From an uncultured Oscillospiraceae bacterium (GTDB lineage Bacteria > Bacillota > Clostridia > Oscillospirales > CAG-382), in contig CAZTNR010000002.1 in assembly GCA_964614955.1 (NCBI GenBank), positions 1-57,677 of the forward strand: a stretch of DNA of 57,677 nucleotides, in the 5' to 3' direction. The notes under the pieces were generated by a model that had not been told where the DNA came from, made no database searches, and was given only the letters and a program-made list of their open reading frames with translations. Both the position numbers and the translations under genes were made by a program. Shown here one piece after another: positions 20,501-45,508 of this stretch (the stretch's first letter is position 1; every line of letters begins with the position of its first letter).

Positions 20501-22444
20501 ATCGAGGATTATCCTACAATCGGTATGACAAAGGAACAGCTCACACGTGCTCTTCCTGCAGTTCCCGACAGAGAAATCACAGGTCTTTCTCTTACAGACG
20601 GCGGCGAAGCTCTCTACCAGAACAGAATTGCAACAGAAGCAACGGTATACCCCGTATACGATAAGGTAAAGCTTCTCGATCAGACACTTGAATTCAACAG
20701 CTCTGCAGATTATGATAGAATTGCTGCAATCAACGGTTTCAGAGTTGGTCAGAACAACGTAAAGACTAAAGTTGCCGAACAGTTTGTAATTACAAGCGAT
20801 GATACAGCAGGCTACATCTCTATGGAAAATGAATCTGCTGAAGGCGAAGGCGGTGCAGTAATTGACTACGGCTTTGTCGTTACAACTACTCCTTTCTCCA
20901 AGGAAGAAGTTAAGGAAATCGTTATAAGACTCAGACTTAATAACATTCCTGAAGCTACAGCAAAATATACCTGCGGTACTCACTGTACTACCGGAAGTCA
21001 TACATTTGATCCTACAAATGCATGCTATATGGAGCTTGTATGGTGGGATGCAGATTCTGCTGAATTAAAGCAGAACTATGTATATGCAAACCTTGTTGAG
21101 CTTGAAGGCGACTGGTTTACATATTCTATCCCCGCGGAAAGCTTCCCCTACGATAATGTTAAGCAGTTCAGATTTGACCCCTTCGGCGACGTAGCTCCTA
21201 ACGGTACGGTTTGTGAAGTTGACTACATCCGCTTCTACGGCTATCCCGATCCCGACAACGAAGCTCTCGCATACAGTGCAGAATTCAATGAAAACGCAAA
21301 CGGCGTGAGCCTTAATGCTTGGATGAAGGAAGACGGCACATATATGTTCGATGACGGCGTAAACGGCGATAGGGGCCCCGGTATCGGTTCTAAGTACCTC
21401 ACAGACGGTGCTGACGGCTACATCACTTGGAACGCAGACGGTTATGTAACTCTTAACTTCGACGCAAACGATGAAATAAAGGCAGCTGCAGCAGAGGCAG
21501 GCTACACAGCAGCAGTTTACGACCCCTCTATCTACGTTTCCGCACTTGATAAGGCTAAGTACATTCCTGCCGGCTCATTTGAAGAACTCGTTATCAGAAT
21601 GAGAATCAGAGGTCTTCCCACAGACGGTACAACAGTTTACGGTCAGAACTACGGCGGTCTTAACTCCGTAGAATTCTCAATGTCCAAGTACCCTGTATAC
21701 TTCCACTGGATGAACAGCAGAGATGCTATTAAGTATGACGGCGTACAGTCTAAGTACTTTGACGACACTTGCACATTTATCGAAGGCTCCTATGTAGCTG
21801 ACGAATGGTTCACAGTTTCCATTCCCGCATCCTTCTTTGATGCAGATGTTGAAGACCTTGCAACTCTCAGAATCAACCTTCCCGACTGGACTCCCGACGG
21901 AACAAAGATTGATATCGACTACATCAGATTTATGGGTCAGCCCGCAGAGGTTGATGCTCCTGCATCTGTTGAAGACGCTACAGATATCAGAATTGTAGAA
22001 GGTAAGGAAAACGGTCTCAGATTCAAGGCTACAGTTACCTCTGCTACAGATACAACAGCTGCAGCCCTTGGTTTCGTAGTAGTTTCCTACGACAAGTTTA
22101 TGGCTGATAACAATTCTTACGACGCTCTTGCAGTTGATACAGAAGGTGCAAAGGTTGGTTATAAGAGACTTGATGGCGAAGATTTAGTTAACTACTTCAA
22201 CACCGATGATGACGAAGCTCTCGAAATGGCAGCAGTTCTTTACGGTATTCCCGAAGCAAACTTCGAAAGCTACGTACTCGTAAGACCCTTCGCATTCGTT
22301 GATGGCGCTTACTACTACGGTACAGCATTCTCCACAAGCCTCTATATTGAAGCTTGCGAAATCGCTGATTCCGATGCTTATGATCTCTTAGATGAAGATC
22401 AGCAGGCATACATCGACTACGTTCTCAACACAGTTGAACTCTGA
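17591..22444 (+). CDS. Giant secreted modular surface protein 2, N-terminal gene (1617 aa), ending at TGA 22442
   Basis: RBS AAAGGAG and signal peptide MKKFLSILLAVMMVLSTVSFA. Four modules end ADIDYIRFIG / VDIDYIRFVG / CEVDYIRFYG / IDIDYIRFMG. Also three Flg_new-like repeats and a GIRF-type domain (21976-22350). It ends at the position homologous to the natural C-terminus of the 45757 protein. Confidence 0.9.
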   Translation: MKKFLSILLAVMMVLSTVSFAAPSIAGSTETAVEAPVVEALAEEAADLAADAVIDEFGTLLAEVNFNSAALGEIDFGSGLLISALGGSSDITTAKLCNGSGNSYPAMGAVIKERATGDKYLEVTTNASAAYNLLQLYTGASSTYFTTEDGYLTVTFDVNYGTSAATGKYHDVVYNRSQLAEAKDQSLLTLAEENGGWGKVISSFDEEIGLSGNGGNSETMVPNEVNYIKLHSASGVAAGETYGIDNIRVYYRPKTVDVTIYVDGTNDVVINDYDTLGMELDELAALLPEVEGKALAGFSLEEGGEPMATTKFASDCTVYPVYEERVALNGSLEFTSDSDLNKITNRNGKAAFSHDADNGYLHVEFSGSDTGFNWKSVNIPADVLTDIEFKIRYYGITKTTNVNQPEIYYTTGGTFIHGTSYKIDLTNYNDGDWLTFHFTAAELGITDLTTFRLDFYDNMTSGSADIDYIRFIGRPVRVTVDNGDNATAPEVVMDITSSTTVAEVEAKYAKDHGDMKFLGLSRTAGGEVLADTELVSADGTSTTLYAVWDDYEYLTRYSLDFDEETDVTKKISINQNNDGVDGNSTYGTTYFWNEEGGYLTLKAVAADGYTATWDHQVYVNTFSSDTALPAGVVSEIAVRMRYRNIPSAKTTYTISGKSDIAFDPANNNAYVHIDKYGATAFGKQLQSTNRTEKNLVDGEWFTRYLDAETYFAGGLSYVRFDTAYPLPDGAEVDIDYIRFVGDNKDENIPGAEFLGEYGEQVFTVNFDSAAAGTLTSGSTIEAIGGETNGWISKAEASEIKFGFGANGGKTAPTGVIESTGTNQYFTYTLNDAGSYNYFFFRSYASGLQYVDQDGYFIATFDYKTSADKAFTFRFNRQDQIEDPAENIQVIDNGEWKTAVVYYDNEIGSAVRSTTTSIASTDEINIVKWHPTGDGAAAGTTVSIDNFTLWFVPKTTTVTVNLAKYGVADAVIEDYPTIGMTKEQLTRALPAVPDREITGLSLTDGGEALYQNRIATEATVYPVYDKVKLLDQTLEFNSSADYDRIAAINGFRVGQNNVKTKVAEQFVITSDDTAGYISMENESAEGEGGAVIDYGFVVTTTPFSKEEVKEIVIRLRLNNIPEATAKYTCGTHCTTGSHTFDPTNACYMELVWWDADSAELKQNYVYANLVELEGDWFTYSIPAESFPYDNVKQFRFDPFGDVAPNGTVCEVDYIRFYGYPDPDNEALAYSAEFNENANGVSLNAWMKEDGTYMFDDGVNGDRGPGIGSKYLTDGADGYITWNADGYVTLNFDANDEIKAAAAEAGYTAAVYDPSIYVSALDKAKYIPAGSFEELVIRMRIRGLPTDGTTVYGQNYGGLNSVEFSMSKYPVYFHWMNSRDAIKYDGVQSKYFDDTCTFIEGSYVADEWFTVSIPASFFDADVEDLATLRINLPDWTPDGTKIDIDYIRFMGQPAEVDAPASVEDATDIRIVEGKENGLRFKATVTSATDTTAAALGFVVVSYDKFMADNNSYDALAVDTEGAKVGYKRLDGEDLVNYFNTDDDEALEMAAVLYGIPEANFESYVLVRPFAFVDGAYYYGTAFSTSLYIEACEIADSDAYDLLDEDQQAYIDYVLNTVEL

Positions 22445-22477: not shown

Positions 22478-24640
22478 ATGAGTGAACCTGCTTCCGTTGC
22501 GGAAAGCATAATTATTCCCACAAACCTAAAGCCCGTTGAATATAAGTATGTTTACGGTGATCTTACTCCCCATATATATGCTTTTGTAGACGGCACAGCA
22601 AAGTACATTCCCGTTGATAGATACGCAAGTCTTAACGGCACTCTTTCCGTCCTCTCGCAGGACGGAAAGGCTGTCAATAGTCTTTTCGACGAAAAGCTTT
22701 GCGTTTATGCAATTGATAAGTACGGAATTTATCATATAAGAGGTCTTAGCTCTGCAATTGATATGGACGGCGAATATGTCGGCTTGTCGCAGGACGGTGC
22801 TTCTCTTTACAGCGGAACCGATGAAAGCATTATGATTATAAATGAAGATGCTTACTTTGCTTCTAATGTTCAGAGAATTGACGGTGAGAATAACGAGGAT
22901 TCAATTTTCCTCGGAAGCCGTGAAGATACTACGTATGAAAGCGTATTTCCCACCGACCTTACAAAGGTAATAGTGAGAACCTACTTCACTGAATCCGATA
23001 CTTATGAATGGGCAACCTATGACTATGATGCTCTTATGCTTATGGGGCTTGCAAATGAGGGTACATATAATCTCGGTCATAATATCCCGACAGAGTCTCT
23101 TTCCTATGTTCTTTCAAATAAGAAGGACAGCACAGAGAATGAGTATCTTGTTGCGGCATATATTACAAATACGTATGTTGATGACTGCGAGTATGATATT
23201 GATGAATTCACAAGCGACAATTGCATCATAAGACAGGCAGAAACAACATTTGAAGACGGCAATGTTACTCTCGAAGCAACAGGCACCGATATTTCAATCG
23301 GTCTTACTGACCTAAGTCTCGATACATCCTTGTACAACAGAGTGAGAATACGTCTTAAGTACACAGGCGAATTCGCGGAGAACGAAAGATTCCAGCTCTT
23401 CTTCATGAGAACACAGGATAGTGCTTTTACCGAAGCGCGAACCCAAAATGGCAGATTTGAAGCTTACTGTGTTCCCGACGGGGAAGGGTGGTACATTTTC
23501 GACCTTGACCTTTCAAATGCTTCGAAATGGAACGGAACAATCAAGGAAATCCGTTTTGACCCCGTAAATGACTATGGTACATTTACATTTGATTATATCA
23601 AGTTTATCAGAAACGGTAAATATGAGAAGTTAAGTGACAGTGAGCTTGAAGCTCTTTACACTCCTACATCTCTTCTTTATGATAACGACTTCGTAAACGG
23701 CTTTGACGTGCGTCCTATAGTTAACAACTATAATCCCGAGGGTTATTTTGAATATACAGGCTCGGGTGATGAAACTAACAACCTTTGGGCAATCTGCCCT
23801 TGGTGGACTCACGACGGTGACGGACTCAGTCCCTCAAACTACGCGGCAACAAGCCTTATTCATAACCGTGCAGAAACGGATGAATATACCATTGCTGACG
23901 CAAAGGGCTCGAAGGTAATTACATACCATCCCGATGATAAGTCGCTTACAATGACGCTCAACGCCTCCAGGATTTATGACGGCACGCCTCATATCAAGGA
24001 TGATGCGACAACTACAGACGTTGATGAATCAAACCGTAAGTGGTGGCCTCATCTTCTTATCGAACAGGATCCATCAATCTGTCCGGTTGATACAGAAGTT
24101 CATTCTGCCGATGCAGAAAGAATTATGTGCGAGCTTGATATCAGAATGACCGAGTATACGCCTACAACCAACGAAGAAGGCACAAATGCCTGCCAGTTCC
24201 TCGTGTATTTCTACCTCTTCCATAAGGATGATGTAAAGAGAAGTCAGAGAATCTGGTTCGGTGCTTGTCTTTATGATAACAGAGGCGGTGTCGTATACGT
24301 TCCGACCTGGAACCGTGACTCTGCGGCAAATCAGATGATTTACTGTATTCCTCAGGAAACGGTTTATGAGGGACTTGAAAATTCCTATATCAGACATCAG
24401 GTTGTTGACAATACGTCTGTGTTTAATACCGTAACCGATGATGAATGGAAAACTATCAGACTTGATTTGACTTCCCATATTGACAGGGTAGTTGAATGGA
24501 TGAACAGAGACAACGCATTCGGAAAAGAAGTGTCAAAAGAGGATTTGTACTTCGGCGGCGTAAATCTCGGCTTCGAAACACACGGCAATATCGACTGTAC
24601 ATTTGAAATAAGAAACTTTGATCTTGTTTCATATAACTGA
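22478..24640 (+). CDS. C-terminal portion of the giant protein 2 family (720 aa), same frame as 17591-22444, no signal peptide
   Basis: Colinear with residues downstream of the GIRF domain in giant protein 1 (ESIIIPTN vs ENLIIPTN). It has one module ending FTFDYIKFIRN and the conserved C-terminal domain (KWWPHLLIEQ ... GVNLGFETHGNIDCTFEIRNFDLVSYN). Only a GAGGAG 12 nt upstream could serve as an RBS. Confidence 0.8.
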   Translation: MSEPASVAESIIIPTNLKPVEYKYVYGDLTPHIYAFVDGTAKYIPVDRYASLNGTLSVLSQDGKAVNSLFDEKLCVYAIDKYGIYHIRGLSSAIDMDGEYVGLSQDGASLYSGTDESIMIINEDAYFASNVQRIDGENNEDSIFLGSREDTTYESVFPTDLTKVIVRTYFTESDTYEWATYDYDALMLMGLANEGTYNLGHNIPTESLSYVLSNKKDSTENEYLVAAYITNTYVDDCEYDIDEFTSDNCIIRQAETTFEDGNVTLEATGTDISIGLTDLSLDTSLYNRVRIRLKYTGEFAENERFQLFFMRTQDSAFTEARTQNGRFEAYCVPDGEGWYIFDLDLSNASKWNGTIKEIRFDPVNDYGTFTFDYIKFIRNGKYEKLSDSELEALYTPTSLLYDNDFVNGFDVRPIVNNYNPEGYFEYTGSGDETNNLWAICPWWTHDGDGLSPSNYAATSLIHNRAETDEYTIADAKGSKVITYHPDDKSLTMTLNASRIYDGTPHIKDDATTTDVDESNRKWWPHLLIEQDPSICPVDTEVHSADAERIMCELDIRMTEYTPTTNEEGTNACQFLVYFYLFHKDDVKRSQRIWFGACLYDNRGGVVYVPTWNRDSAANQMIYCIPQETVYEGLENSYIRHQVVDNTSVFNTVTDDEWKTIRLDLTSHIDRVVEWMNRDNAFGKEVSKEDLYFGGVNLGFETHGNIDCTFEIRNFDLVSYN

Positions 24641-24651
24641 AAAAACAATTG

Positions 24652-24678
24652 AATCCCTCGGTTTTCGGGGGATTTATT
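24652..24678 (+). terminator. Intrinsic terminator after 22478-24640
   Basis: AATCCCTCG-gtttt-CGGGGGATT, a 9-bp stem with one G-U pair, followed by TTATT. Confidence 0.6.
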
Positions 24679-24704
24679 GCACATTTGTATTTGCTTGTTA
24701 CAAT
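24677..24704 (+). promoter_or_regulatory. Candidate promoter of SLH paralogue A
   Basis: TTGCAC (24677-24682), a 16-nt spacer, then TACAAT (24699-24704), ~40 nt upstream of ATG 24745. Confidence 0.4.
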
Positions 24705-24744
24705 ACATTTGGTGCATAATTATATAAGAAAGGAAGTTTTTTGT

Positions 24745-26436
24745 ATGAAAAAATTCTTATCAGTACTTCTTGCAGCACTTATGCTTGCTACAGGTACATT
24801 CGCGGCATTCGAAAAGGTTAATACATATGACAATAACTTTTCCGATGTCAAGGACACTAACTGGTTTGCAAAGGATGTAAAGTCTGCTTACGAACTCGGC
24901 TTTATGAACGGTAAGGCAGAAGGTCTTTTCGATCCTAACGGTAACGTAACAGTTGCTGAAGGTATTACAATGGCAGCAAGAGTTCACGCTATTTATAACG
25001 GCAATGAAATCACAAAGGCTGAAAAGCCTGTTGTAGCTGCCGGTGACGAAATCCGTTTTGATTTCGACACACTTGACGGTCACAGACTCAACCACGCAGT
25101 GGGTGATGTTGAAGACGGCGTTCTTGTAATGCAGCCCGATGCTCCCAATGCTTCCAACTTGTTTGACCTCGGCGTATTTATGGATGATCTTTCCATTGAT
25201 GCTTCTGTTTATAAGACAATGACTGTAAGAATGAAGAGAGACGAGCTTCCCAATATTGTTGAAAGCAGAAATGAAGCATTTGAAATCTTCTTTGGTTCTG
25301 AAGCTAACTCCACACTCGGTGCTGAAGGTAACTTCTTGTATTCAAAAATTGCAGAGCCCGAAAAGCTTTCCGACTGGAATGAATATACATTCGATATGTC
25401 TTCGGCAGCAGGTTGGACAGGCACTATTGTTCAGATTCGTTTCGACCCCACAAATAATAACGGTAAGTACTACATTGACTCTATCGTGCTCACGGCAGGT
25501 TCAGCTCCCGTAGTTGAAGAACCCAAGGCTGAAAAGTGGTATGATATGTATGTTGACTACGCTGTAGCTAACGGCATTATAACAAAGACAACCTTCGGCA
25601 GCTACGATAAGAATATCTCAAGAGCAGACCTTGCTCACCTCTTTGCAGCATCACTTCCCGAAAGCTACTTTGGTGCTATCAACGATATCAAGGGTATTCC
25701 CGATGTTGATAAGAATGATAAGTATGCAAAGGAGCTTCTTATGCTCTATAATGCAGGTGTAGTTCTCGGTGATGCAGAAGGTAACTTCAACCCTGCATCC
25801 GATATTAAGAGATCTGAAGTTGCAGCTATTATCAACAGAGTTGCTCTTCCCGAATCCAGAGTAAAGGGTACAGTTAATGCTGTATGGGAAGAAGAAAAGC
25901 CTGTTACTCCTGTAACTCCCGAGGTTCCCAAGGCAGATGAAAATGAAACTGAAAAGGAACACGTTGCAACTCCTTTTGATGTTGAATTCAATGACCCTGC
26001 GGATCTTGATAAGTTTGCTCCCGGTGAAGTTGATTCTGCTGAAATTATTGACGGCGCACTTGTAATGGTTGCAAGAGACAGAGGTGCTGATCGTCAGCCT
26101 CAGTACGACCCCAGACTTGTTATGAAGAATGTTGAAATTGATGCTGATACATACAAGACAATCAAAATCAGACTCAAGGCTGAATTCATCGGTGAAATTA
26201 CTAACGGATATTCTACAGATATTTACTTTATGACAGCTGAAGATGATAACTTCTCCGAAGAAAGATCACTTCATCCCAACCTCCTCTCTGTTTCAAAGCT
26301 TGATGATGAAGGCTGGTATCTTGTAGAGATCGACCTTACTGCTAAGGATAACTGGAGGGGCAAGGTTGTTGCATTCCGTTTCGACCCCTCTAACAACAAC
26401 GGAAAGTTCTCATTTGATTACATCAGATTTGAATAA
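24745..26436 (+). CDS. SLH-anchored surface protein, paralogue A (563 aa); lacks the conserved C-terminal domain
   Basis: RBS AAAGGAAG before ATG 24745; the track ORF starts at an upstream alternative codon. Domain order: signal peptide MKKFLSVLLAALMLATGTFA; SLH1 (FSDVKDTNWFAKDVKSAYELGFMNGKAEGLFDPNGNVTVAEG); module ending NNGKYYIDSIVL; SLH2-SLH3; module ending FRFDPSNNNGKFSFDYIRFE, then the stop. Confidence 0.9.
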   Translation: MKKFLSVLLAALMLATGTFAAFEKVNTYDNNFSDVKDTNWFAKDVKSAYELGFMNGKAEGLFDPNGNVTVAEGITMAARVHAIYNGNEITKAEKPVVAAGDEIRFDFDTLDGHRLNHAVGDVEDGVLVMQPDAPNASNLFDLGVFMDDLSIDASVYKTMTVRMKRDELPNIVESRNEAFEIFFGSEANSTLGAEGNFLYSKIAEPEKLSDWNEYTFDMSSAAGWTGTIVQIRFDPTNNNGKYYIDSIVLTAGSAPVVEEPKAEKWYDMYVDYAVANGIITKTTFGSYDKNISRADLAHLFAASLPESYFGAINDIKGIPDVDKNDKYAKELLMLYNAGVVLGDAEGNFNPASDIKRSEVAAIINRVALPESRVKGTVNAVWEEEKPVTPVTPEVPKADENETEKEHVATPFDVEFNDPADLDKFAPGEVDSAEIIDGALVMVARDRGADRQPQYDPRLVMKNVEIDADTYKTIKIRLKAEFIGEITNGYSTDIYFMTAEDDNFSEERSLHPNLLSVSKLDDEGWYLVEIDLTAKDNWRGKVVAFRFDPSNNNGKFSFDYIRFE

Positions 26437-26654: not shown

Positions 26655-29240
26655 ATGAAGAAGTTTTTATGTCTGCTCTTGGTTGCAATAATGCTTTGTG
26701 TAGGTGTAAATGCGGAATTCGAAAAGGTTAATACTTATAACAATAACTTTTCGGATGTAACTGATTCCAATTGGTATGCAGAAAACGTGAAGACTGCATA
26801 TGAGCTCGGCTTTATGAACGGTAAGTCCGAGGGCAAATTTGATCCCAACGGCACAGTTACCGTAGCCGAGGGTATTACTATGGCTGCACGTATCCACGCC
26901 ATTTATAACGGCAATGATATTGATGCACATAAGAAGGTCGTTGAAGAATACGGCTTTACGTTTGAAGACGGTAAGGTGCCTACAGCATATAACCGTGCAA
27001 CAGGCCGCGTAGAAGATGGTGTTCTTATAGTACAGCCCGATAAACCTAACTCCAACGGTGCGTATGACCCCCAGGTTTCCTTCAACAAGCTCAGCTTCTC
27101 GGCTTCTGACTATAATCTTCTCAAGTTCCGTATGAAGATTGAGCCTCTTGATAATACTGATACATCAAAGCCCAGAAATGAAGTGCTTCAGTTCTACTTT
27201 ATGACAAATCAGTCCAGCGGAATTACTGCCGATAAGGTTGAGTATGTAAAGCTTAAAGAGCTTGGCAAGGATCTTACTGACTGGTTCGAGGTTGAAGTTG
27301 AGCTTTCGGGTAATGAAAAGTGGATTGATACTATCACAGGCTTCCGCTTTGACCCCTCCGACGATAACGGTATTTTCTATATTGACTATATCACATTCTC
27401 AAAGAGTGAAAATACTACAGGTCAGAAGTGGTATCAGAAGTATGTTGACTATGCCACAGATTACAATCTCTATGGCAAGAATGACTTTTCTTCTTCTGAT
27501 ATGAACAGAAATATAACGCGTGCTGAAATGTGTAATCTTATTGCAGCATCCGTTCCCGAAGAAGAATTTGTTGCTATCAACGACGTAAAGGGCATTCCCG
27601 ATGTTCTACGTGATGCAAGAAATGCCGATGTTTACCTTATGCTTTATAAGGCAGGTATCGTTCTCGGTGATACAGAGGGTAACTTTAAGCCTGCTTCCGA
27701 TATAAAGAGATCTGAAATTGCTGCTATCATCAATAGAGTAGCTCTTCCCGAAAACAGAGTAAAGGGTACAACAAAGACCGACTGGGCAGAGCAGGGTAAT
27801 GAGTATGACGTTGAATTCAACTCTGCCGATGACCTTGCACGTGCTGTTCCCGGTGACTGCGATTTTGCTGAAATTAAGAACGGCGCAATCACAATCATCC
27901 CCAGGGATAGAGGCGAAAACCGTTCTCCTCAGTTTGACCCCAAGCTTCTCGTTTCCAACATCAATGTAAATGCGGACGAATTTGCAAAGCTCAAGGTAAG
28001 AATGAAGGTTGATTTTGAGGGCACACCCAATCCCAGCCAGACAAAGTTCGACTTCTACTTTAAGACCGAAGGCGACGAATCTCTTTCCGAAGCAAAGTCA
28101 ATGCATCAGGCATTCACAGAATACAGCTATGTTGATGCTGCCGGCTGGTATGTAATGGAGGTTGACTTCACACTCCATAAGGAATGGAAGGGTAATATCG
28201 TTGAATTCCGTTTTGACCCCGCAAATACAAACGGCACATACACAATCGACTACATAAGACTTGCTAAGGGCGATCCTCTTCACGGCGCTTCTCACGAATT
28301 GCTTATCAGCGAAGGCTATACTGCAACAAGACTTATGCAGGACGAACACTTTGAAAGAGGCTTCGGCGTTGCTAATGTTGAGCAGAAGGAAGGCTATACA
28401 CACGGTACTTGGCAGACCTTCACAGATACCGACGAAAAGCCCCTTTGGGGTATCGGTCCCTGGTGGATTGGTACAGGCGAAGGCTTTGAAGTGGTCGATC
28501 TTTGGGACGACAGAGATTTGGCTGCCGATAAGTATACTCTTACAGATAAGTACGGTATTAACACTGTTAGGTATAACCCCGAAGAAAACTCTATCATTAT
28601 GCGTCAGAACGGTGCGGCTCTCTATCAGGGTAAGCCCCACGATAAGGAGACATATAAGTGGTGGCCTCATCTTCTTCTTGAACAGTCTGTTTCTCTCACA
28701 GGTCCCGTTGATAAGGTAAGAAACTCTGCGGCTGCGGACAGAACCTTCTTTGAAATCGACGTAAAAATGAATGACTATAAGGATACAACAAATCCTGAAG
28801 GCACTAATGTTTCATCATATCTCGTTTACTTCTATCTCGTAACAGATAAGGCACCCGGTCAGAGAATCTGGTTTGGCTTTAAGCTCTTTACAGGTGAAGC
28901 AGCTAACGGCACAGTTACACCTTCCTGGAGTCCCGACTCTGCAGCAAATCAGTATATGTACGGTATTCAGCCTGCTGATATTTATGACGGTCTTGAAAAC
29001 TCCTTCAACCCCGAAAAGGGTGTTGTTACTGCTGACGGTGAATGGAGACACGTCAGAATGGATATCACTTCCCACATCAAGAGAGCTGTTGAATGGGCAA
29101 ACCGTGATAACATCTTCGGTACCGAAGTGACTGTTGAGGATATGTACTGGAACGGCGTAAACATCGGCTTCGAAACACACGGTAACTATGACTACGAGTT
29201 CGAATTCAAGAACTTTAATATGGTTTCCTATAACAAGTAA
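26655..29240 (+). CDS. SLH-anchored surface protein, paralogue B (861 aa)
   Basis: RBS AAAGGAGAAAA. Domain order: signal peptide; SLH1 (26748-26909); module (26943-27401, ...FRFDPSDDNGIFYIDYITF); SLH2-SLH3 (27426-27752); second module (...FRFDPANTNGTYTIDYIRL); C-terminal domain 28270-29240 (KWWPHLLLEQ, RIWFG, WSPDSAANQYMYG, GVNIGFETHGNYDYEFEFKNFNMVSYNK). Confidence 0.92.
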   Translation: MKKFLCLLLVAIMLCVGVNAEFEKVNTYNNNFSDVTDSNWYAENVKTAYELGFMNGKSEGKFDPNGTVTVAEGITMAARIHAIYNGNDIDAHKKVVEEYGFTFEDGKVPTAYNRATGRVEDGVLIVQPDKPNSNGAYDPQVSFNKLSFSASDYNLLKFRMKIEPLDNTDTSKPRNEVLQFYFMTNQSSGITADKVEYVKLKELGKDLTDWFEVEVELSGNEKWIDTITGFRFDPSDDNGIFYIDYITFSKSENTTGQKWYQKYVDYATDYNLYGKNDFSSSDMNRNITRAEMCNLIAASVPEEEFVAINDVKGIPDVLRDARNADVYLMLYKAGIVLGDTEGNFKPASDIKRSEIAAIINRVALPENRVKGTTKTDWAEQGNEYDVEFNSADDLARAVPGDCDFAEIKNGAITIIPRDRGENRSPQFDPKLLVSNINVNADEFAKLKVRMKVDFEGTPNPSQTKFDFYFKTEGDESLSEAKSMHQAFTEYSYVDAAGWYVMEVDFTLHKEWKGNIVEFRFDPANTNGTYTIDYIRLAKGDPLHGASHELLISEGYTATRLMQDEHFERGFGVANVEQKEGYTHGTWQTFTDTDEKPLWGIGPWWIGTGEGFEVVDLWDDRDLAADKYTLTDKYGINTVRYNPEENSIIMRQNGAALYQGKPHDKETYKWWPHLLLEQSVSLTGPVDKVRNSAAADRTFFEIDVKMNDYKDTTNPEGTNVSSYLVYFYLVTDKAPGQRIWFGFKLFTGEAANGTVTPSWSPDSAANQYMYGIQPADIYDGLENSFNPEKGVVTADGEWRHVRMDITSHIKRAVEWANRDNIFGTEVTVEDMYWNGVNIGFETHGNYDYEFEFKNFNMVSYNK

Positions 29241-29374: not shown

Positions 29375-29413
29375 TTTTACATATAACCGATGGTATATGA
29401 AAGGATGATACTA

Positions 29414-32400
29414 ATGAAGAAAATACTTGTATTTTTAGTTGTGGCACTTATGCTTGCAATCGGTGCATTGGCTCAGGATACGCCGGCTGAAACAAACACG
29501 CTTCGCTATGACTTTGACGGCATAGACGGAATATCTTTTTACCGTGCAAGCGGCGATGTTGAGAATGGAGTTCTTGTATATAAGCCTGATACACCTGCAA
29601 ACGGCGGAAGCTTTGACCACGGCTTTTTCCTTGAAGATCTCGGTTTCGATGCTTCTGAATACGATACTCTCAAAATTCGTATGAAGCGTGATAAGCTTGA
29701 TAATACTGACCCTAACAAGTCAAGACCCGAATGGCTTCAGGTTTATTTTCTGACAGCCAATGAAACAAGCTTTACTGCTGACAGAGGTGTTTCCGTAAAT
29801 CTTAAAGTAACTATTGGCGAAGAAAACCTTTCCGATTGGTTTGAGGTTGAAGTGAAGCTTTCGGGTAATAAGCTCTGGAATGGTGAAATCCCCAGAATGC
29901 GTATTGATACTACGGATAATAACGGCGTGTATTATGTTGATTATGTTGAGCTTACAAGCAGTGCCGCGGTAAAAAAGCCCGAAGTGACTGAAAGTGAAAC
30001 AGAAGAAAATGAGACTCCGGAGGAAATTAACATTTCCTTTGAAAAGGTTAATACATATGCCGGTAACTTCGGTGATGTTCCCGCTACATCTTGGTATGCC
30101 GAAAATGTAAAGATGGCTTACGAGCTTGGCTTTATGAACGGCAAGTCCGAAGGCGAGTTTGACCCAAGTGGAAATGTAACGGTTGCTGAAGGTATAACAA
30201 TGGCAACGCGTCTTCACGCTATTTCAATAGGCAGTGAGGTTAGTCAGGAAACGGCGTCCGGTTCTGATTCTTTGCGCTATGATTTTGATTCAATGGACGG
30301 CATTTCTCTTTCTCATGCTGTTGCAAAAGCGGAGGACGGTCTTCTTGTCCTTCAGCCCGATGCCCCTCTTTCCAACGGTCTATATGACCCCGGCTTTTTC
30401 CTTGACGGACTCGATATGTACGCCACCACCTACGATACATTCAAGATTCGTATGAAGAGAGATAAGCTTGATAATACCGACCCCAACAAGTCAAGACCCG
30501 AGTGGCTTCAGGTTTATTTCCAGACCATAAATGATCTTAACTTCAAGGGCGAAAGAGGCTATTCCGTAAATCTTAAAAATGTGATAGGCGAGGATAAGCT
30601 CTCGGATTGGTTTGAGGTTGAAATCAAGCTTTCCGACAACGCACTCTGGAAGGATACCATTTCAAGAATGCGTATCGACCCGACAGATAATAACGGCATT
30701 TATTATATTGACTACATCGAATTTTCAAAAAGCGGCGAGAAGAGCGCAAACGAAAAATGGTATGACCTTTATGTAAGCTATGCTCTCACACATAACATTA
30801 TCAAGCAGAACACATTCTCTACCGAAGAATACACAAGAAACATAACACGTGCCGAAATGTGTAATCTTTTTGCTGCGGCTCTTCCCGAAAACTATTTCCC
30901 TCCCATAAATAAAGTTACGGCAATTCCTGATATGGATAAGAATGACTACTATGCGGATATTATGCTTATGCTCTACCGCGCAGGTGTTGTTCTCGGCTCC
31001 GATGCTGAAGGAAACTTCAATGCCTCTTCTGATATTAAGAGATCAGAGGTTGCGGCAATTATCAACAGAGTTGCACTTCCCGAAAATAGGGTAAAGGGGG
31101 AAATTACAGGTGACTGGGCAAGCTCATACCATTTGCACGATATTGAATTTAATGATCCTTCTGAACTTGATAATCTCTATTTGCCGGAATCAAGCTCAGA
31201 AGGTGAAATCAAGGACGGACACCTTGTTCTTAAGCCTGTCGAAAGAAAGGTTGCACCCACATATGATGCACAGGTAGGAAAGCTGGGAACAAGCATCCGC
31301 GCCGATGAATATACTACTCTCAGAGTCAGAATGAAGATAGAGTATAAGGGTGCAATCGGCAGAACAAAGGGCGAATTCTTCTTTACTCCCGAAGGCGTTG
31401 GAAATTTTGCTCAGGATTACGGATATTTCCCCGATTTTGAAGCGGGATATTATGTTGATGCCGCCGGCTGGAGAGTTTACGAATTCTATCTCGGCGGAGT
31501 TGAAAACTGGAAGGGTAATATCACAGGCTTCCGCTTTGACCCCACAAACAATAACGGCGTATATACTATCGACTATATCCGTTTTGTCAGAGAAGAAAGC
31601 ACAATGATTGTCTCTGATGAAGAACTCGAAAAGAATTATACTGCAACAAAAGTGTTCGAAGACGAGGGATTTGAAACAGGCTTTATAGTAAAAGAACCCG
31701 ACGGTGATAGAAAAGCGGTTGGTACATTTACATACGGCGATGAGACAAAAGAGCCCAAGTGGTATCTTCTTCCCTGGTGGACAAAGGCTTGCTTTATAAA
31801 TGATGCGGCAGAAACAAATGATAAATATACAATAGCCGATAATATAGGAGCAAAAACCTTTAAGTATAATCCCCAAGAAAAGTCTGTCACAATGAGACTT
31901 GATACAGAAAAGGTTTATGAGGGCAAGGCTCACGGTGCTGATGATATGTGGCCGCACCTTCTTGTCGAGCAGTCTTTGTATGCAGATGATTATTCCAAGG
32001 TTCCCGAGGAAAAGAAGGAGAGCCTTGACCTCGGTGCAGATAAGGTTTACGTTGAAATGGAAGTAAAGCTTAATGAGCTCGTTGACCTTGACGCTCATAA
32101 CAGACAGGACGGCGTAAGAAGTCATATTAAGTATAATGTTTACTTCTACGTTGCACACAAGGATATTCCAGGTACACATACATATTTTGGCGTAAATCCT
32201 CTTGATACAAGAGGAAATAACTCCACACAATATGACTGGTTCAATGATACCGAATCTACTATGATGATTTACAGAGTTCCCGCTTCTGATTTTGTAACAG
32301 AAGAAAACGCACTCGGTAATGACGACGGAACGTATAATATGGGCGAATGGAAGAAGATAAGAGTTGATATCACTCCTCACCTTGAAAATATTGCATCACT

Positions 32401-32554
32401 TCTTACAAAGGACAATACACTAAAGAGAAGCGTTACACGTGATGACCTCTGGATGAGCGGCGTTAATGCGGGCTTTGAAATCTGGGGTAACTGGCAGTGT
32501 GAGGTTGAAATGAGAAACCTCAACGTAATTTGCTACGATAAAATAGAAGCGTAA
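29414..32554 (+). CDS. SLH-anchored surface protein, paralogue C (1046 aa), with an extra N-terminal module
   Basis: RBS AGGA 8 nt before ATG 29414; the track ORF starts at ATG 29390, which has no RBS. Domain order: signal peptide; module; acidic linker; SLH1; duplicated module; SLH2-SLH3; module (YTIDYIRFVRE); a divergent C-terminal domain (MWPHLLVEQ ... GVNAGFEIWGNWQCEVEMRNLNVICYDK). Confidence 0.9.
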   Translation: MKKILVFLVVALMLAIGALAQDTPAETNTLRYDFDGIDGISFYRASGDVENGVLVYKPDTPANGGSFDHGFFLEDLGFDASEYDTLKIRMKRDKLDNTDPNKSRPEWLQVYFLTANETSFTADRGVSVNLKVTIGEENLSDWFEVEVKLSGNKLWNGEIPRMRIDTTDNNGVYYVDYVELTSSAAVKKPEVTESETEENETPEEINISFEKVNTYAGNFGDVPATSWYAENVKMAYELGFMNGKSEGEFDPSGNVTVAEGITMATRLHAISIGSEVSQETASGSDSLRYDFDSMDGISLSHAVAKAEDGLLVLQPDAPLSNGLYDPGFFLDGLDMYATTYDTFKIRMKRDKLDNTDPNKSRPEWLQVYFQTINDLNFKGERGYSVNLKNVIGEDKLSDWFEVEIKLSDNALWKDTISRMRIDPTDNNGIYYIDYIEFSKSGEKSANEKWYDLYVSYALTHNIIKQNTFSTEEYTRNITRAEMCNLFAAALPENYFPPINKVTAIPDMDKNDYYADIMLMLYRAGVVLGSDAEGNFNASSDIKRSEVAAIINRVALPENRVKGEITGDWASSYHLHDIEFNDPSELDNLYLPESSSEGEIKDGHLVLKPVERKVAPTYDAQVGKLGTSIRADEYTTLRVRMKIEYKGAIGRTKGEFFFTPEGVGNFAQDYGYFPDFEAGYYVDAAGWRVYEFYLGGVENWKGNITGFRFDPTNNNGVYTIDYIRFVREESTMIVSDEELEKNYTATKVFEDEGFETGFIVKEPDGDRKAVGTFTYGDETKEPKWYLLPWWTKACFINDAAETNDKYTIADNIGAKTFKYNPQEKSVTMRLDTEKVYEGKAHGADDMWPHLLVEQSLYADDYSKVPEEKKESLDLGADKVYVEMEVKLNELVDLDAHNRQDGVRSHIKYNVYFYVAHKDIPGTHTYFGVNPLDTRGNNSTQYDWFNDTESTMMIYRVPASDFVTEENALGNDDGTYNMGEWKKIRVDITPHLENIASLLTKDNTLKRSVTRDDLWMSGVNAGFEIWGNWQCEVEMRNLNVICYDKIEA
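29501..29953 (+). repeat. Intragenic duplicated module, copy 1 (151 codons)
   Basis: LRYDFDGIDG...KIRMKRDKLDNTDPNKSRPEWLQVYF...NNGVYYVDYVEL. Long near-identical nucleotide runs are shared with 30272-30724 (attcgtatgaag...gataagcttgataata..gac..caacaagtcaagacccga.tggcttcaggtttatt). Confidence 0.85.
30272..30724 (+). repeat. Intragenic duplicated module, copy 2 (151 codons)
   Basis: LRYDFDSMDG...KIRMKRDKLDNTDPNKSRPEWLQVYF...NNGIYYIDYIEF. It is the same length as copy 1 and is separated from it by SLH1. Confidence 0.85.
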
Positions 32555-32683: not shown

Positions 32684-35284
32684 ATGAAAAAATTATTGGT
32701 TTTGCTTATGGCTGCAGTAATGCTTGCTACAGGCGCAAATGCTGCGTTTGAGAAGGTTAATAAGTATGAAAACAATTTCTCTGACGTAAAAGACACAGCG
32801 TGGTATGCTGAAAACGTTAAAACAGCATACGAACTCGGCTTTATGAACGGTAAATCCGAAGGCATGTTTGACCCCAATGGAAATGTAACAATTGTTGAGG
32901 GTATCACAATGGCTTCCCGTCTTCATGCTATTTACAACGGTACTGAAGTAAAGAAGAACGAAAACAAGGAAGTTTCCGAATACCGTATTGAATTCGATGA
33001 TCCCGAAATTCTTGTTGACCTTTCCCAAAGAAACTCAAGAAACACACATGGTGTAAACTTTAACAGAGCATACGGTGAAATCAAGGATGGTGTGCTTATC
33101 TGTCAGCCCGATGCTCCCAACGCATCAGGCAACTATGACCCTCAGATCAAGTTTGAAGGTCTTGAGCTTCCCGCAAAGGATTATAACAAGGTTATTTTCT
33201 GTATGAAGAGAGATGTTCTTCCCGACATTGACGACAGAAAGAGAAACGAAGTTCTTGAATTCTACTTCCAGACAAGCACGGCTCCCAACATTTCCGCAGA
33301 TAAGTGTGTATATATCAAGCTTCCCACTGATCAGGATCTTTCAGATTGGTTCGTTGTTGAAGCCGATCTCGGTAACCACGAATTGTGGAAGGACATAATC
33401 ACAGGCTTCCGATTTGATCCCACAAACCATAACGGTGTTTACTATATCGACTACATTGGTTTCGGCAAGAGCGAAAACATCAAGAGCGATAAGTGGTATG
33501 ATATGTATATCGATTATGCTATCGAAAACGGCATTATCGGTAAGACAGACTACACAACAGACGAATACAATAACAATATCACAAGAGCTGAAATCTGTGA
33601 CATGATCGCAGCAGCTATCCCCGAAGAACACTTTGCACCCATCAATGATGTAAAGGGTATTCCCGACGTACTCAGAGACTCCAAGAACGCAGACGTTTAC
33701 CTTACACTCTATAAGGCTGGCGTGCTTCTCGGTGACACAAACGGCAACTTCAATCCCGAGGCTGACATTAAGAGATCGGAAATCGCAGCTATCATCAACA
33801 GAGTAGCTCTTCCCGAATCAAGAGTTAAGGGCACTGTTGACTGTGACTGGGCTGACCAGGGTAACCAGTATGACAGAGAATTCTATGATGCATCCAGCCT
33901 TGAAACCATTACATACAAGAAGTGTGACCTTGAAGTTGTAAACGGCGCTCTCGTTGCAACGGCTCAGTTTATGGGTGCCGATGCAAAGCCTCCGTATGAC
34001 ACACAGATTGGTGTTGAAGACATTTCTCTTAACGCTGACGACTACACAAAGCTCAGAGTAAGAATGAAGATTGATTTCATCGGTGAAAACGATGAGGTTT
34101 CCAGAAAGGGCGACTTCTACTTCAAGACAAGCGAAGATGAAAACCTTTCCGAGACAAAGGCTCTTCATGCAGACTTTGGTGCAACATCCTATAAGGATCC
34201 CTTCGGCTGGTACATCATCGACGTTGACTTTGCAACACATAAGGAATGGAAGGGCAATATTACAGGCTTCCGTTTTGACCCTGCAAACGCAAACGGTAAA
34301 TTTACAATCGACTATATCAGACTTGTAAAGGCTGATCCTTTAAAGAATGCTTCCCATGAAACACTTATCGGTGCAGGCTATGAAGCAACATACCTTATGC
34401 AGGATAAGGGCTGGGATAACGGCTTCTATGTAGGTCACTATGAACAGTCTAAGACAGTTGATATGGAAAGCCGTATCTGGCAGTACAATGAAACTGACGA
34501 AAAGCCTCTTTGGAGCATTGCTCCTATTTGGAACACATATGACCTTTGGGACCACAAGGTAGTAGACGGCAACAAGTACGTTCTCACCGACGATAAGGGT
34601 ATTAACACTCTTACTTATAACCCCGAAGAAAAGTCCATGTCCATGAGACTCAATGCTACAAAGATTTATAACGGCGAGCCTCACGACCCCGAAACATATA
34701 AGTGGTGGCCTCATCTCCTTCTTGACCAGCAGGAATCTGTTCCCGTTGATAAGGAGAAGAATTCCGTAAATGCTGACAGAATGTATATTGAACTCGACAT
34801 GAGAGTTACTGACTTCAAGGATACATTAAATCAGGAAGGCAGCAACGTATGTTCTTTCCTTGCATACTTCTATCTCAAGACAGATAAGAACCCCGCTGCC
34901 AAGATCTGGTACGGCGTCAGACTTTTCCCCGGTCTCAGCGCAAGCACAAGCACAACTCCCGGTTGGGCTCCCGACTCTGCAGCTCATATGTATATGTACG
35001 GTATTACTCCTGCTGATATCTTTGGCGGAATTGAAAATTCCTTTAACCCCGAAAAGGGCGTAGTTACTGTCAGCGACGAATGGAAGCATATCAGAGTTGA
35101 TATTACAGAACATATCGACAGGTGTGTCGAATGGGCTAACCGCGATAAGGCTTACGGTGTTGAAGTAACTAAGGAAGACCTCTACTTCAACGGCGGTAAT
35201 ATAGGCTTTGAAATCCACGGTAACTACGATATGACTGTTGAAATCAAGAATCTTGATATCGTATCCTACAACAAGGCTGACTAA
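32684..35284 (+). CDS. SLH-anchored surface protein, paralogue D (866 aa)
   Basis: RBS AAAGGAA and a signal peptide. The architecture is SLH1 / module (YYIDYIGF) / SLH2-3 / module (FTIDYIRL) / C-terminal domain 34327-35284 (KWWPHLLLDQ ... GGNIGFEIHGNYDMTVEIKNLDIVSYNK). Confidence 0.92.
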   Translation: MKKLLVLLMAAVMLATGANAAFEKVNKYENNFSDVKDTAWYAENVKTAYELGFMNGKSEGMFDPNGNVTIVEGITMASRLHAIYNGTEVKKNENKEVSEYRIEFDDPEILVDLSQRNSRNTHGVNFNRAYGEIKDGVLICQPDAPNASGNYDPQIKFEGLELPAKDYNKVIFCMKRDVLPDIDDRKRNEVLEFYFQTSTAPNISADKCVYIKLPTDQDLSDWFVVEADLGNHELWKDIITGFRFDPTNHNGVYYIDYIGFGKSENIKSDKWYDMYIDYAIENGIIGKTDYTTDEYNNNITRAEICDMIAAAIPEEHFAPINDVKGIPDVLRDSKNADVYLTLYKAGVLLGDTNGNFNPEADIKRSEIAAIINRVALPESRVKGTVDCDWADQGNQYDREFYDASSLETITYKKCDLEVVNGALVATAQFMGADAKPPYDTQIGVEDISLNADDYTKLRVRMKIDFIGENDEVSRKGDFYFKTSEDENLSETKALHADFGATSYKDPFGWYIIDVDFATHKEWKGNITGFRFDPANANGKFTIDYIRLVKADPLKNASHETLIGAGYEATYLMQDKGWDNGFYVGHYEQSKTVDMESRIWQYNETDEKPLWSIAPIWNTYDLWDHKVVDGNKYVLTDDKGINTLTYNPEEKSMSMRLNATKIYNGEPHDPETYKWWPHLLLDQQESVPVDKEKNSVNADRMYIELDMRVTDFKDTLNQEGSNVCSFLAYFYLKTDKNPAAKIWYGVRLFPGLSASTSTTPGWAPDSAAHMYMYGITPADIFGGIENSFNPEKGVVTVSDEWKHIRVDITEHIDRCVEWANRDKAYGVEVTKEDLYFNGGNIGFEIHGNYDMTVEIKNLDIVSYNKAD

Positions 35285-35379: not shown

Positions 35380-35417
35380 TAGTATGGTAAATACTCTTGA
35401 TACAGAAAGGAATAAAG

Positions 35418-37970: not shown

Positions 37971-37976
37971 ATACAT

Positions 37977-44506: not shown

Positions 44507-45508
44507 TTATTTGTTGCTTGTTCTCAGTTTACCCACGTGAGGATTGAACTTTCTGTATTGGGCAGGGGTTATTTGTCTTATTTTTTTAAAAGCCTTTGAA
44601 AAGCTGTCGCGGTTTTTAAAGCCGAGCTCCGTCGCAATTTTGCTTATAGGCATACGTGTGTTGAGAAGCATAATTTTAGCAAGGCGGACTCGTTCGCTTG
44701 CGACGAGATATGAAAAAGAAACACCCGTTGCTTCTTTGAGAAGACGGTGTATGTGGGTTCTTGAAAATCCGAAGTGGGAGGATAACTCTTTAAGTGTAAC
44801 GGTGCTGCAGTTGTTGTTGATGTAGCTTATAATCCTTTGGGCAACATCGCTTTTTCCCGATTCCTCTGAAGTATAAAGGTGCTCATGCCGTTCTTGCTTT
44901 GCCAGCATAATAAGACAGGAAGAAAATAGATTTTCAAAATATAAATTGTCAAAAAGTCCCGTGCTTCGGTACACGGTTCTGTGAATATCAAGCATTTTCG
45001 ACAGCGTATTTTCATACATTTCATTGTCCTTACTTGAAAAAACGGTAAAAATACTGTTGCTGCTGAGATTTGAAATGTAGTTGTTCGGGTCGCCGTTTTT
45101 GAATATATTGCCCATTTCACAAAACCAATCGCTCTTAATAAAGAATGAGGCGTGATTTGTGTCGGGAAGAACGAAAAAACTGTGTGTGACAGAAGGTGAC
45201 AGAATTACTGTTTCACCCTTTTCAATGATGTAACTGTTGTCTGCCATAACTTCAACTATGGCACCTTCAAGTACATGTGTAAATTCATAAAAGTTGTGAT
45301 TATGATAGTCTGCATTTGGAAAGAACATATAATTGTGCTGAATTTTTCTCAGATTGTCATGAGCACAGATTTCAAAAAGCATTGTTCTTGAGGCTTTGTT
45401 TTGGTGTAAGGAGCTTATAACATTGGTGATTCTTTCTATTTCTCTGTATACTTCTACACCGTACTTATCAATAACTTCTTGTCTGTTATTTTTGCTGACT
45501 GTAATCAT
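44507..45508 (-). CDS. AraC/XylS-family transcriptional regulator (cupin-like N-domain plus C-terminal dual HTH)
   Basis: 333 aa. The C-terminus is LKELSSHFGFSRTHIHRLLKEATGVSFSYLVASERVRLAKIMLLNTRMPISKIATELGFKNRDSFSKAFKKIRQITPAQYRK, a typical AraC HTH. RBS AAAGGA. Confidence 0.9.
   Translation of the reverse strand: MITVSKNNRQEVIDKYGVEVYREIERITNVISSLHQNKASRTMLFEICAHDNLRKIQHNYMFFPNADYHNHNFYEFTHVLEGAIVEVMADNSYIIEKGETVILSPSVTHSFFVLPDTNHASFFIKSDWFCEMGNIFKNGDPNNYISNLSSNSIFTVFSSKDNEMYENTLSKMLDIHRTVYRSTGLFDNLYFENLFSSCLIMLAKQERHEHLYTSEESGKSDVAQRIISYINNNCSTVTLKELSSHFGFSRTHIHRLLKEATGVSFSYLVASERVRLAKIMLLNTRMPISKIATELGFKNRDSFSKAFKKIRQITPAQYRKFNPHVGKLRTSNK

Follow-up and report, generated by a model that had tools for sequence, protein, structure and literature searches.

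What is the function of a domain that closes one large protein after another in the same gene array? In the window analysed here (the whole stretch of 57,677 nucleotides, from a Clostridia bacterium of the ruminant gut), tblastn with the focal copy as query detected a C-terminal domain (CTD) of about 325 aa at the end of eight neighbouring plus-strand ORFs, with E values from 1e-46 to 1e-136 and 32–59% identity to the focal copy. A ninth copy was not found in the window, and the next tblastn match had an E value of 0.5. The repeat described in the first-pass annotation is real, and the coordinate ranges given there for eight copies agree with ours within about 20 bases, but the nine copies named in its title were a miscount. 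The focal CTD (28248–29237, plus strand) is located in ORF 26655–29240 and defines the residue numbering used throughout, residue 1 being the D at its start. Further copies, all on the plus strand, lie upstream at 15897–16955 in the giant 2494-aa ORF 9474–16958 (33% identity to the focal copy) and at 23603–24637 in ORF 22478–24640, which encodes 720 aa without a signal peptide (42%). Downstream follow the most divergent copy at 31571–32542 in ORF 29390–32554 (32%), and copies at 34310–35275 in ORF 32684–35284 (58%), at 37002–37964 in ORF 35397–37970 (58%), at 39663–40637 in ORF 38043–40643 (52%), and at 43443–44462 in ORF 40770–44465 (59%). As had been described before, every copy in the window is C-terminal, ending 0–3 residues short of the stop codon. 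As a trait of the family this position does not hold, since elsewhere the CTD occurs alone or N-terminal to dockerin, T9SS-tail or BNR. The recurrent motifs listed earlier are present as consensus in the copies, and 40 columns are invariant across all eight. For the focal CTD and its orthologues in two MAGs, a dN/dS of 0.14 was obtained; the CTD is under purifying selection.

The focal gene (26655–29240, plus strand) encodes a signal peptide, one SLH domain, an M module (26949–27404), two further SLH domains, a second M module (27807–28268), and the CTD. Pfam SLH domains were detected in five of the eight CTD proteins (857–1054 aa), confined to the N-terminal parts and never inside the CTD, and were not matched in the CTD proteins of 2494, 1231 and 720 aa. 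The earlier statement that the giants lack SLH domains is correct for the latter three ORFs, but not for the five proteins of 857–1054 aa. The M modules were matched by no Pfam or NCBIfam model. Beside the array, a minus-strand gene (4976–7921) encodes a signal-less GH106-like protein, which is homologous over its full length to a 975-aa protein whose gene adjoins family genes at three distant loci. The last CTD gene is immediately followed by the gene of an AraC-type regulator on the minus strand (44507–45508). A sugar transporter is absent from the 57-kb window, and this counts against reading the CTDs as enzymes.

Scanning of the window proteins and of 87 diverse family members with Pfam and NCBIfam returned no model for the CTD. 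The GH12 model PF01670 gave no match at E ≤ 1 in six whole ORFs, five of them coding for CTD proteins, and no match at E ≤ 0.01 among the 87 diverse members. PDB sequence-profile searches with the CTD alignments A1, A2 and A6 yielded nothing, and hhalign of the family profiles A2 and A5 against a narrow fungal GH12 profile of 40 sequences yielded probabilities of 0.1–0.3. One match of DUF7537, on P0423, was below the cutoff and covered the signal region only. No high-confidence match to a known Pfam or CAZy family, which according to the first-pass annotation would remove the novelty, was returned, and at the level of the sequence family the novelty of the CTD appears to stand. The family comprises at least 744 clusters at 50% identity, and its members come from metagenomes of gut, sediment, wetland and bioreactor samples. 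Homologues with a source name are all called hypothetical protein, apart from one whose name refers only to its SLH domain. Literature searches covering GH12-like families, newly described families of clan GH-C and the GH65 rhamnose-phosphorylase cluster found neither the family nor a characterised member. Outside the window, the CTD occurs in SLH, dockerin, T9SS-tail, PEP-CTERM and lipoprotein-anchored forms as well as in stand-alone and signal-less forms, the last of which are presumably cytoplasmic.

For analysis of the fold, two AlphaFold models were used, one of the focal CTD (model 1; pLDDT 77) and one of a stand-alone homologue (model 2; pLDDT 94.5). The top 50 Foldseek matches in the PDB consisted for both models of GH12 structures, a few GH11 structures and one designed enzyme, which we take to be built on a GH11 scaffold; GH16, lyase or peptidase structures were not among them. 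GH12 (Thermotoga maritima Cel12A, 3AMH/3AMQ; Pyrococcus EGPf; Trichoderma Cel12A) was the near-exclusive and best structural match of both models. The top match was Thermotoga Cel12A, with E values of 1e-9 and 1e-8, a probability of 1.00 and a target-normalised TM-score of about 0.5, the TM-scores overall being just about 0.4–0.5. The GH11 matches (2C1F, 2VG9, 1F5J, 7ZSZ) formed a second, weaker group with E values of 1e-4 to 1e-5. Because the models match GH12 and then GH11 structures, the predicted CTD fold is the beta-jelly roll of clan GH-C (GH12/GH11), and judged from these models GH16 is excluded. The first-pass guess of a jelly-roll, glycan-active domain gains support, as both models match beta-jelly-roll glycanases only and the family is found in carbohydrate-utilisation loci, while the resemblance to GH16 noted at the same time was not recovered, the structural neighbours being GH12 and GH11.

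Among 123 diverse family representatives, the sole invariant residue (123/123) is E309 (codon 29172–29174, plus strand). This residue is part of the motif N305-x-G307-[WF]-E309-x-x-G312 and is our candidate for a general acid/base. Also highly conserved are W139 (99%), D32 (98%), W67 (98%), H141 (95%), W208 (93%) and N305 (92%). W139 and H141 belong to the WPHLL motif (W139-P140-H141 codons at 28662–28670, plus strand), and the WWPHLL motif pointed out in the first pass is thereby conserved family-wide. In the AlphaFold models, the strand bearing E309 is preceded by a single long helix and followed by one last strand. GH12 enzymes have the same layout of helix, Glu strand and final strand, and the N-x-G-x-E-x-x-G pattern has a parallel in Q196-x-G198-x-E200-x-x-x-G204, which is invariant in the GH12 alignment (A3). 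Based on motif and topology, we propose that E309 may be the counterpart of the GH12 acid/base E200 (T. reesei Cel12A). The acid/base Glu of GH11 enzymes is likewise located on the penultimate strand. Residue proximity within the CTD was derived solely from covariation and motif analogy. Covariation was calculated as mutual information with APC correction, which gave usable strand ladders, and mean-field DCA with 423 sequences was discarded because of dominant gap and conservation artefacts. An apparent pairing of the WPHLL and E309 strands derives from near-invariant columns only and was not relied on.

The GH12 nucleophile motif E-[LI]-M-[IV]-W (E116) is not conserved in the CTD family. The sole local hhalign match (FIWFG/MIWLG) was not significant and equates E116 with position 204, which is occupied by G, N, D, S or T. 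Another acidic site, E169-x-D171-x-K173 (28752–28766, plus strand), had been compared with the acid pair of GH16. Position 169 varies among the 123 representatives (S in 31, E in 26, N in 12, and others), neither 169 nor 171 is acidic in 37 of them (30%), and the GH16 catalytic motif E-x-D-x-x-E is absent from the CTD. An antiparallel ladder of covariation links the site to R270/H268/W266 and to the last strand, which places the E169 strand in the sheet of the last strand and, by analogy to GH12, in the outer sheet. Thus, E169-x-D171-x-K173 probably forms a non-catalytic salt-bridge ladder. E169 as nucleophile was rejected due to its family-wide variability and the covariation ladders.

The gene context of the family was surveyed at about 33 non-redundant metagenome loci, where tandem arrays of 2–5 CTD-family paralogues are found. 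SBP_bac_1 is present at 13 loci and two ABC permeases at 12 loci each, in most cases immediately upstream of the family genes. LacI/GntR regulators are present at 8 loci, GH65 at 7, GH78-like genes at L087, L088, L089 and L100, and the GH106-like 975-aa protein at 3 loci in addition to the window. Further neighbours are GH15, GH38 and GH32, a conserved unannotated 936-aa protein, and HAD proteins, which we take to be beta-phosphoglucomutase-like from their usual pairing with GH65. Uronate-pathway genes were not seen among the conserved neighbour clusters. The neighbours of stand-alone CTD genes in Acutalibacteraceae appear housekeeping-like by reading (mfd, dapA/dapB, asd, queA-like) and are uninformative. 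P0265 and P0349 are encoded on short contigs and were likewise of no help here. Typical loci of the family are arranged exactly as Gram-positive polysaccharide-utilisation loci, with extracellular endo-enzyme, SBP_bac_1 ABC importer and cytoplasmic exo-enzymes or phosphorylase. The window differs from these in having just the GH106-like gene and the AraC-type regulator by the array, and no transporter. The recurrence of GH78-like, GH106-like and GH65 genes nearby may indicate that the target polysaccharide contains rhamnose and/or alpha-glucose.

Our main reading, to which we assign a probability of roughly 0.5, is that the CTD is the distal head in a large unannotated family of secreted, sometimes cytoplasmic, proteins, has the clan GH-C fold and acts as a glycan-cleaving, probably endo-acting module; it would represent a candidate new family of such enzymes, partly remodelled in the window copies. 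Repeats, purifying selection, match in fold, conserved positions and gene neighbourhoods are what the data show; catalysis, the roles of residues and the substrate are what we infer here. E309 on the penultimate strand would serve as general acid/base, like E200 in GH12. As no conserved carboxylate was found at the putative GH12 nucleophile site, a second catalytic group would have to sit elsewhere, with D32, E145 or D230 as candidates, or the chemistry would be other than classical double displacement. Signal peptides and SLH domains would hold the proteins to the cell wall, the eight diverged paralogous heads on their M-module stalks would represent a battery of related specificities, and intracellular enzymes, for example the GH106-like protein encoded beside the array, could complete the breakdown of the products. 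A more specific version is put forward tentatively: an unrecognised CAZyme family of clan GH-C that has kept the acid/base Glu, has no nucleophile at the GH12 position, and may perform non-canonical catalysis on a rhamnose/alpha-glucose polysaccharide as entry enzyme of the loci with GH65, GH78-like, GH106-like and 936-aa proteins, the window array being a specificity-diversified battery.

Rather unlikely, though to be taken seriously, is that the CTDs of the window are non-catalytic glycan-binding heads (lectins or adhesins) derived from an enzyme family, with catalysis lost, fold and sugar-binding cleft kept, and SLH stalks presenting the heads to plant or host glycans. Several polar residues conserved in the family are indeed lost in the window copies: Q71 is replaced by P and H187 is lost in all eight, Q190 in six, K105 in five, and D215-x-R217 in five. 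Given these losses, the window CTDs could be degenerate, binding-only derivatives. The missing canonical nucleophile, the location at the far end of long SLH-anchored proteins with many modules, the eightfold diversification and the window's lack of a transporter are also consistent with such heads. However, D32, W67, W139, H141, D230, N305 and E309 are kept in 8/8 window copies (W208 in 7/8) despite identities of 32–59%. Moreover, the loss of H187 covaries with the gain of H311 and H131 (z 7–8), which suggests that a functional His was relocated rather than lost to decay. The gene context suggests enzymes both for the nearest stand-alone relatives and for the family at large, and the signal-less paralogues in arrays retain the full conserved constellation, which fits an enzyme and would be odd for a lectin.

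An enzyme using the GH-C scaffold for other chemistry, i.e., a polysaccharide lyase or transglycosylase, a substrate-assisted enzyme of hexosaminidase type or a Gln/Glu glutamic-peptidase-like hydrolase, is improbable. It would account for the single invariant carboxylate accompanied in typical members by conserved H141, H187, Q190, Y194, R217 and K105, and for Q190 being opposite E309 on the adjoining strand by covariation register. The lack of lyases and peptidases among the top 50 Foldseek matches argues against it, as do the neighbouring genes, which encode glycoside hydrolases, a phosphorylase and sugar transporters and, in the conserved clusters, show no uronate pathway. A wall-binding or sorting domain replacing SLH, also offered in the first pass, is very improbable: it would agree with the C-terminal position of all window copies and with the three proteins lacking a Pfam SLH match, but SLH domains are already present in five of the eight proteins, the CTD elsewhere precedes dockerin, T9SS or BNR modules or occurs as a stand-alone lipoprotein or without any signal, and its fold is a glycanase fold. 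The chance of a GH16-like enzyme with an E169-x-D171 pair is very small, as its E-x-D spacing is a superficial likeness set against representatives without either acid, a strand pairing in the last-strand sheet and Foldseek matches without GH16.

Returning to the reading of the CTD as a glycan-cleaving module, the comparison with known systems shows both similarities and differences. In common with GH12, the CTD has a long helix followed by a long strand with G-x-E-x-x-G and a final strand, and its family is secreted and modular, with dockerin and SLH. Unlike GH12, it shows no detectable sequence homology to that family, is about 100 residues longer, reaches TM-scores of only 0.4–0.5, does not conserve the E-[LI]-M-I-W nucleophile, and has a conserved constellation of its own (D32, W67, Q71, K105, W139-P-H141, H187, Q190, D215-x-R217). 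The GH11 xylanases of clan GH-C share the jelly-roll class, but the CTD is without sequence similarity to them and without their nucleophile Glu. A further resemblance is to the multimodular surface glycanases that Clostridia and Bacillota anchor by SLH domains: in the CTD proteins, too, a terminal module of catalytic type comes after a signal peptide, SLH domains and accessory modules in repeated copies. The CTD proteins differ in their split SLH domains (one, an M module, then two), in unannotated M modules and head, and in occurring as eight tandem paralogues.

If the heads are lectins, the array would represent a diversified adhesin set, which would be less novel and still unannotated. If they are catalytic, the CTD family would be a third sequence family, with a different catalytic constellation, in a fold class known to us only from GH11 and GH12. 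A function would then be available for at least 744 clusters, unnamed or "hypothetical" where checked. A catalytic CTD would further indicate a polysaccharide-utilisation pathway that has gone unrecognised, whose other conserved members (the 936-aa protein, the GH106-like protein of 975 aa and the M module) are likewise unannotated, and would account for a large block of genes for surface proteins in Oscillospiraceae and Acutalibacteraceae of the ruminant hindgut.

The window carries a series of large ORFs on the + strand, eight of which share one terminal domain (CTD) of ~325 residues: 9474-16958 (2494 aa), 22478-24640 (720 aa), 26655-29240 (with the focal copy at 28248-29237), 29390-32554, 32684-35284, 35397-37970, 38043-40643 and 40770-44465. 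The first-pass annotation had counted nine copies. A tblastn search of the window with the focal copy as query gave exactly eight matches (32-59% identity, E 1e-46 to 1e-136), and the next match had an E value of only 0.5; therefore, the copies number eight. Their alignment contains 40 invariant columns, and all motifs listed earlier are present in it as consensus. Each copy ends 0-3 residues before the stop codon; the position at the extreme C-terminus, as described earlier, holds in the window and not in the wider family. Two related MAGs contain orthologues of the focal copy (amino-acid identity 87% and 85%), and comparison with them gave a dN/dS of ~0.14; the CTD is a genuine protein-coding domain and evolves under purifying selection.

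Signal peptides and Pfam SLH domains were found in all five CTD proteins of 857-1054 aa; the previous statement that the giants lack SLH domains applies to the 2494-, 1231- and 720-aa proteins only. The focal protein consists of a signal peptide, SLH, an M module, SLH-SLH, another M module and the CTD, in this order. The M module (~150 aa, C-terminal motif RFDPxNxxGxxxIDYIRF), for which no match was obtained in Pfam or among PDB sequences, occurs in 25 copies across 11 window ORFs between 9510 and 50334 (e.g. 26949-27404 and 27807-28268 in the focal protein), including the CTD-less 24649-26436, 17591-22444 and 45757-50838. Except in the 2494-aa giant, every CTD protein (seven of eight) has an M module immediately before its CTD. 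Long antisense ORFs (190-394 aa) over CTD and M-module coding regions (28098-28670, 31196-32380, 37329-37976, all on the - strand, and others) are probably by-products of sense-strand coding, not genes.

The 1617-aa ORF 17591-22444 (with signal peptide) is in the same frame as the 720-aa CTD ORF 22478-24640 (without), the gap being one stop codon and 10 codons. The homologous junction is uninterrupted in the 2494-aa giant, and the ~720-aa ORF is also separate in related MAGs (loci L008 and L018); the arrangement suggests either a split that has been conserved or a candidate for read-through. The giant (9474-16958) has no signal peptide; a 188-aa ORF (8373-8939) that shares its signal peptide and N-terminus with 17591-22444 is located 535 bases upstream, and an antisense 163-aa ORF occupies the gap. 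Possibly the N-terminus of the giant has been disrupted, through a frameshift, an assembly error or pseudogene formation. ORF 50857-55062 encodes a secreted 1401-aa protein that has alkaline phosphatase (Pfam E 2e-55) as its N-terminal domain as well as Big_2; its C-terminal region appears by eye similar to the ends of 17591-22444 and 45757-50838, which, if so, would mean that the gene array shares a second type of C-terminal domain.

AlphaFold models were obtained for the focal copy (8-sequence alignment; pLDDT 77, pTM 0.82) and for the stand-alone homologue P0062 (86-sequence alignment; pLDDT 94.5, pTM 0.89). For both models, the best 50 Foldseek matches in the PDB were GH12 and a few GH11 structures, joined for the second model by one designed enzyme, which we take to be built on a GH11 scaffold. 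Thermotoga Cel12A was the top match (E 1e-9 and 1e-8, probability 1.00, target-normalised TM ~0.5). These matches identify the modelled fold as the clan GH-C jelly roll; the earlier suggestion of a glycan-active jelly roll was right in kind.

Neither the window proteins nor 87 diverse relatives had a Pfam or NCBIfam match to the CTD, and PDB sequence profiles gave none. Named homologues are all 'hypothetical protein' or labelled for the SLH domain alone, and a description of the family was not found in the literature on GH12-like and new clan GH-C families. A profile search covering 1.84 billion representative proteins yielded 744 clusters at E<=1e-3 and 535 at E<=1e-10. The listed representatives include many stand-alone proteins of ~300-350 aa; in others the domain is combined with dockerin, T9SS tail, PEP-CTERM, Big_2 or BNR modules, in several cases as the N-terminal part. 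Close relatives of the window copies belong to Oscillospiraceae, Clostridia and Acutalibacteraceae MAGs obtained from goat, sheep and deer hindgut, the closest being from Oscillospiraceae SIG639 (86% identity). In the related MAGs RGIG8792 and SIG639 (L016 3590-10969 and L017 3641-10969), five tandem stand-alone ~310-aa copies come before a CTD protein of 849 aa; the domain has thus been amplified repeatedly in this lineage.

Among 123 diverse representatives aligned to the family HMM, E309 (numbering of the focal CTD copy) is invariant, followed by W139, G38, G210, G307, D32 and W67 (98-99%), H141, W208 and N305 (92-95%), and D215, R217, D272, Q190, D298, Q71, K105, D315 and D230 (72-88%). 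The motif N305-x-G307-[WF]-E309-x-x-G312 parallels Q196-x-G198-x-E200-x-x-x-G204, invariant in a GH12 alignment, and lies in the models between the one long helix and the final strand, where the acid/base Glu of GH12 is also placed. Using hhalign, the sole local match to GH12 (FIWFG-MIWLG) was not significant and would put the GH12 nucleophile at the variable position 204. We conclude that the family has no detectable conserved GH12-type nucleophile. Sequence comparison did not place the CTD in GH12 either, and we count the family as a new sequence family inside a known fold class, unannotated and with no characterised member found.

Covariation (mutual information with APC correction, 423 distinct domain sequences) revealed clear antiparallel ladders. 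The pairs K173-W266 (z 8.3), E169-R270 (4.9) and D171-H268 (4.8), together with K173-K321, N175-E319, R28-V326 and R119-E317, would place the E-x-D-x-K strand between the pre-helix strand and the last strand, which in GH12 topology belongs to the outer sheet A. Its charged pairs resemble a salt-bridge ladder on the surface rather than a catalytic centre. E169-x-D171 was also rejected as catalytic pair for its variability: position 169 is S, E, N, T, Q or K across the family and D171 is Asp in 51% of representatives. Strand 186-197 is the partner of the E309 strand (Y196-G303, 5.2; N187-H311, 7.8) and is itself paired with 204-216 (V188-G216, 6.6; Y194-G210, 4.4), a register that would put Q190 opposite E309. 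Two covarying sectors were found, {71, 105, 188, 190, 215, 217, 233, 237} and one including 131, 187 and 311. Typical members have Q71, K105, H187, Q190, D215-x-R217, A131 and P311. The window copies all have P71 and H131 and lack H187; H311 is present in six, K105 and D-x-R in three each and Q190 in two, so the window subfamily is remodelled at the putative active site.

A metagenome scan with an alignment of the typical subfamily gave 80 loci, ~33 of them non-redundant and at least 8 kb long. Here, tandem arrays of 2-5 family paralogues are common, mixing lipoprotein-signal members with ~290-aa members without signal peptide, and the conserved constellation is complete in every array member. 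Both types alternate in L118 (e.g. 8985-9863), L130, L132, L133, L134 and L137; adjacent genes often overlap or are closely spaced, suggestive of translational coupling. Neighbours are SBP_bac_1 (13 loci), two ABC permeases (12 each), a LacI/GntR regulator (8), GH65 (7), an unknown 936-aa protein (7), a GDSL esterase (4), a HAD protein, possibly beta-phosphoglucomutase (3), and, in one subgroup, GH15 and a beta-helix protein. The ~936-aa protein (L118 10936-13746; homologues in L130, L134, L135, L150, L151 and L161) is encoded directly downstream of family arrays and had no Pfam or NCBIfam match. The distant multidomain members P0282 and P0259 share one operon type (LacI, SBP_bac_1, two permeases, a GH78-like gene and the family member), with GH32, GH38 and AraC additionally in L088. 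The window itself has a signal-less GH106-like gene (4976-7921, - strand; Pfam GH106 E 3e-12; NCBIfam rhamnosidase match far below cutoff). Its product is homologous over the full length (26% identity over 923 aa, E 5e-88) to a 975-aa protein encoded near family genes in three distant loci and also in one related MAG. Family loci share the layout of a Gram-positive polysaccharide-utilisation locus, i.e. extracellular enzyme, ABC importer and cytoplasmic exo-enzymes or phosphorylase.

Our preferred reading (probability roughly 0.5) is that the CTD is the head module of a family with GH-C architecture that cleaves glycans. In that case E309 would serve as general acid/base, with D32, E145 and D230 as candidates for the second catalytic group, and non-classical chemistry is possible. 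A derivative acting as lectin or adhesin is a possible but less likely reading, as the altered window copies could have degenerated to a binding module; however, signal-less paralogues are hard to square with a pure lectin role, and the coupled swap of H187/P311/A131 to N187/H311/H131 looks like a relocated His rather than simple decay. Some other chemistry on the same GH-C scaffold is unlikely, and a wall-binding or sorting domain, the alternative offered in the first-pass annotation, is very improbable. The analogy to GH16 spacing does not hold, and a GH16-like enzyme is the least likely reading, with GH12 and GH11 as fold neighbours and 37 of the 123 representatives having no acid at 169 or 171, nearly all of which keep D32, H141, D215, R217 and E309.

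If the CTD family is glycan-cleaving, its extracellular enzyme would supply the ABC importer, and degradation would be completed in the cytoplasm by exo-enzymes or a phosphorylase. GH65 includes a 3-O-alpha-glucosyl-L-rhamnose phosphorylase, and the rhamnosidase-family and GH65 neighbours suggest, speculatively, a polymer with rhamnose and/or alpha-glucose as substrate. In the window, this head would have been amplified into eight surface-anchored, diverged paralogues.
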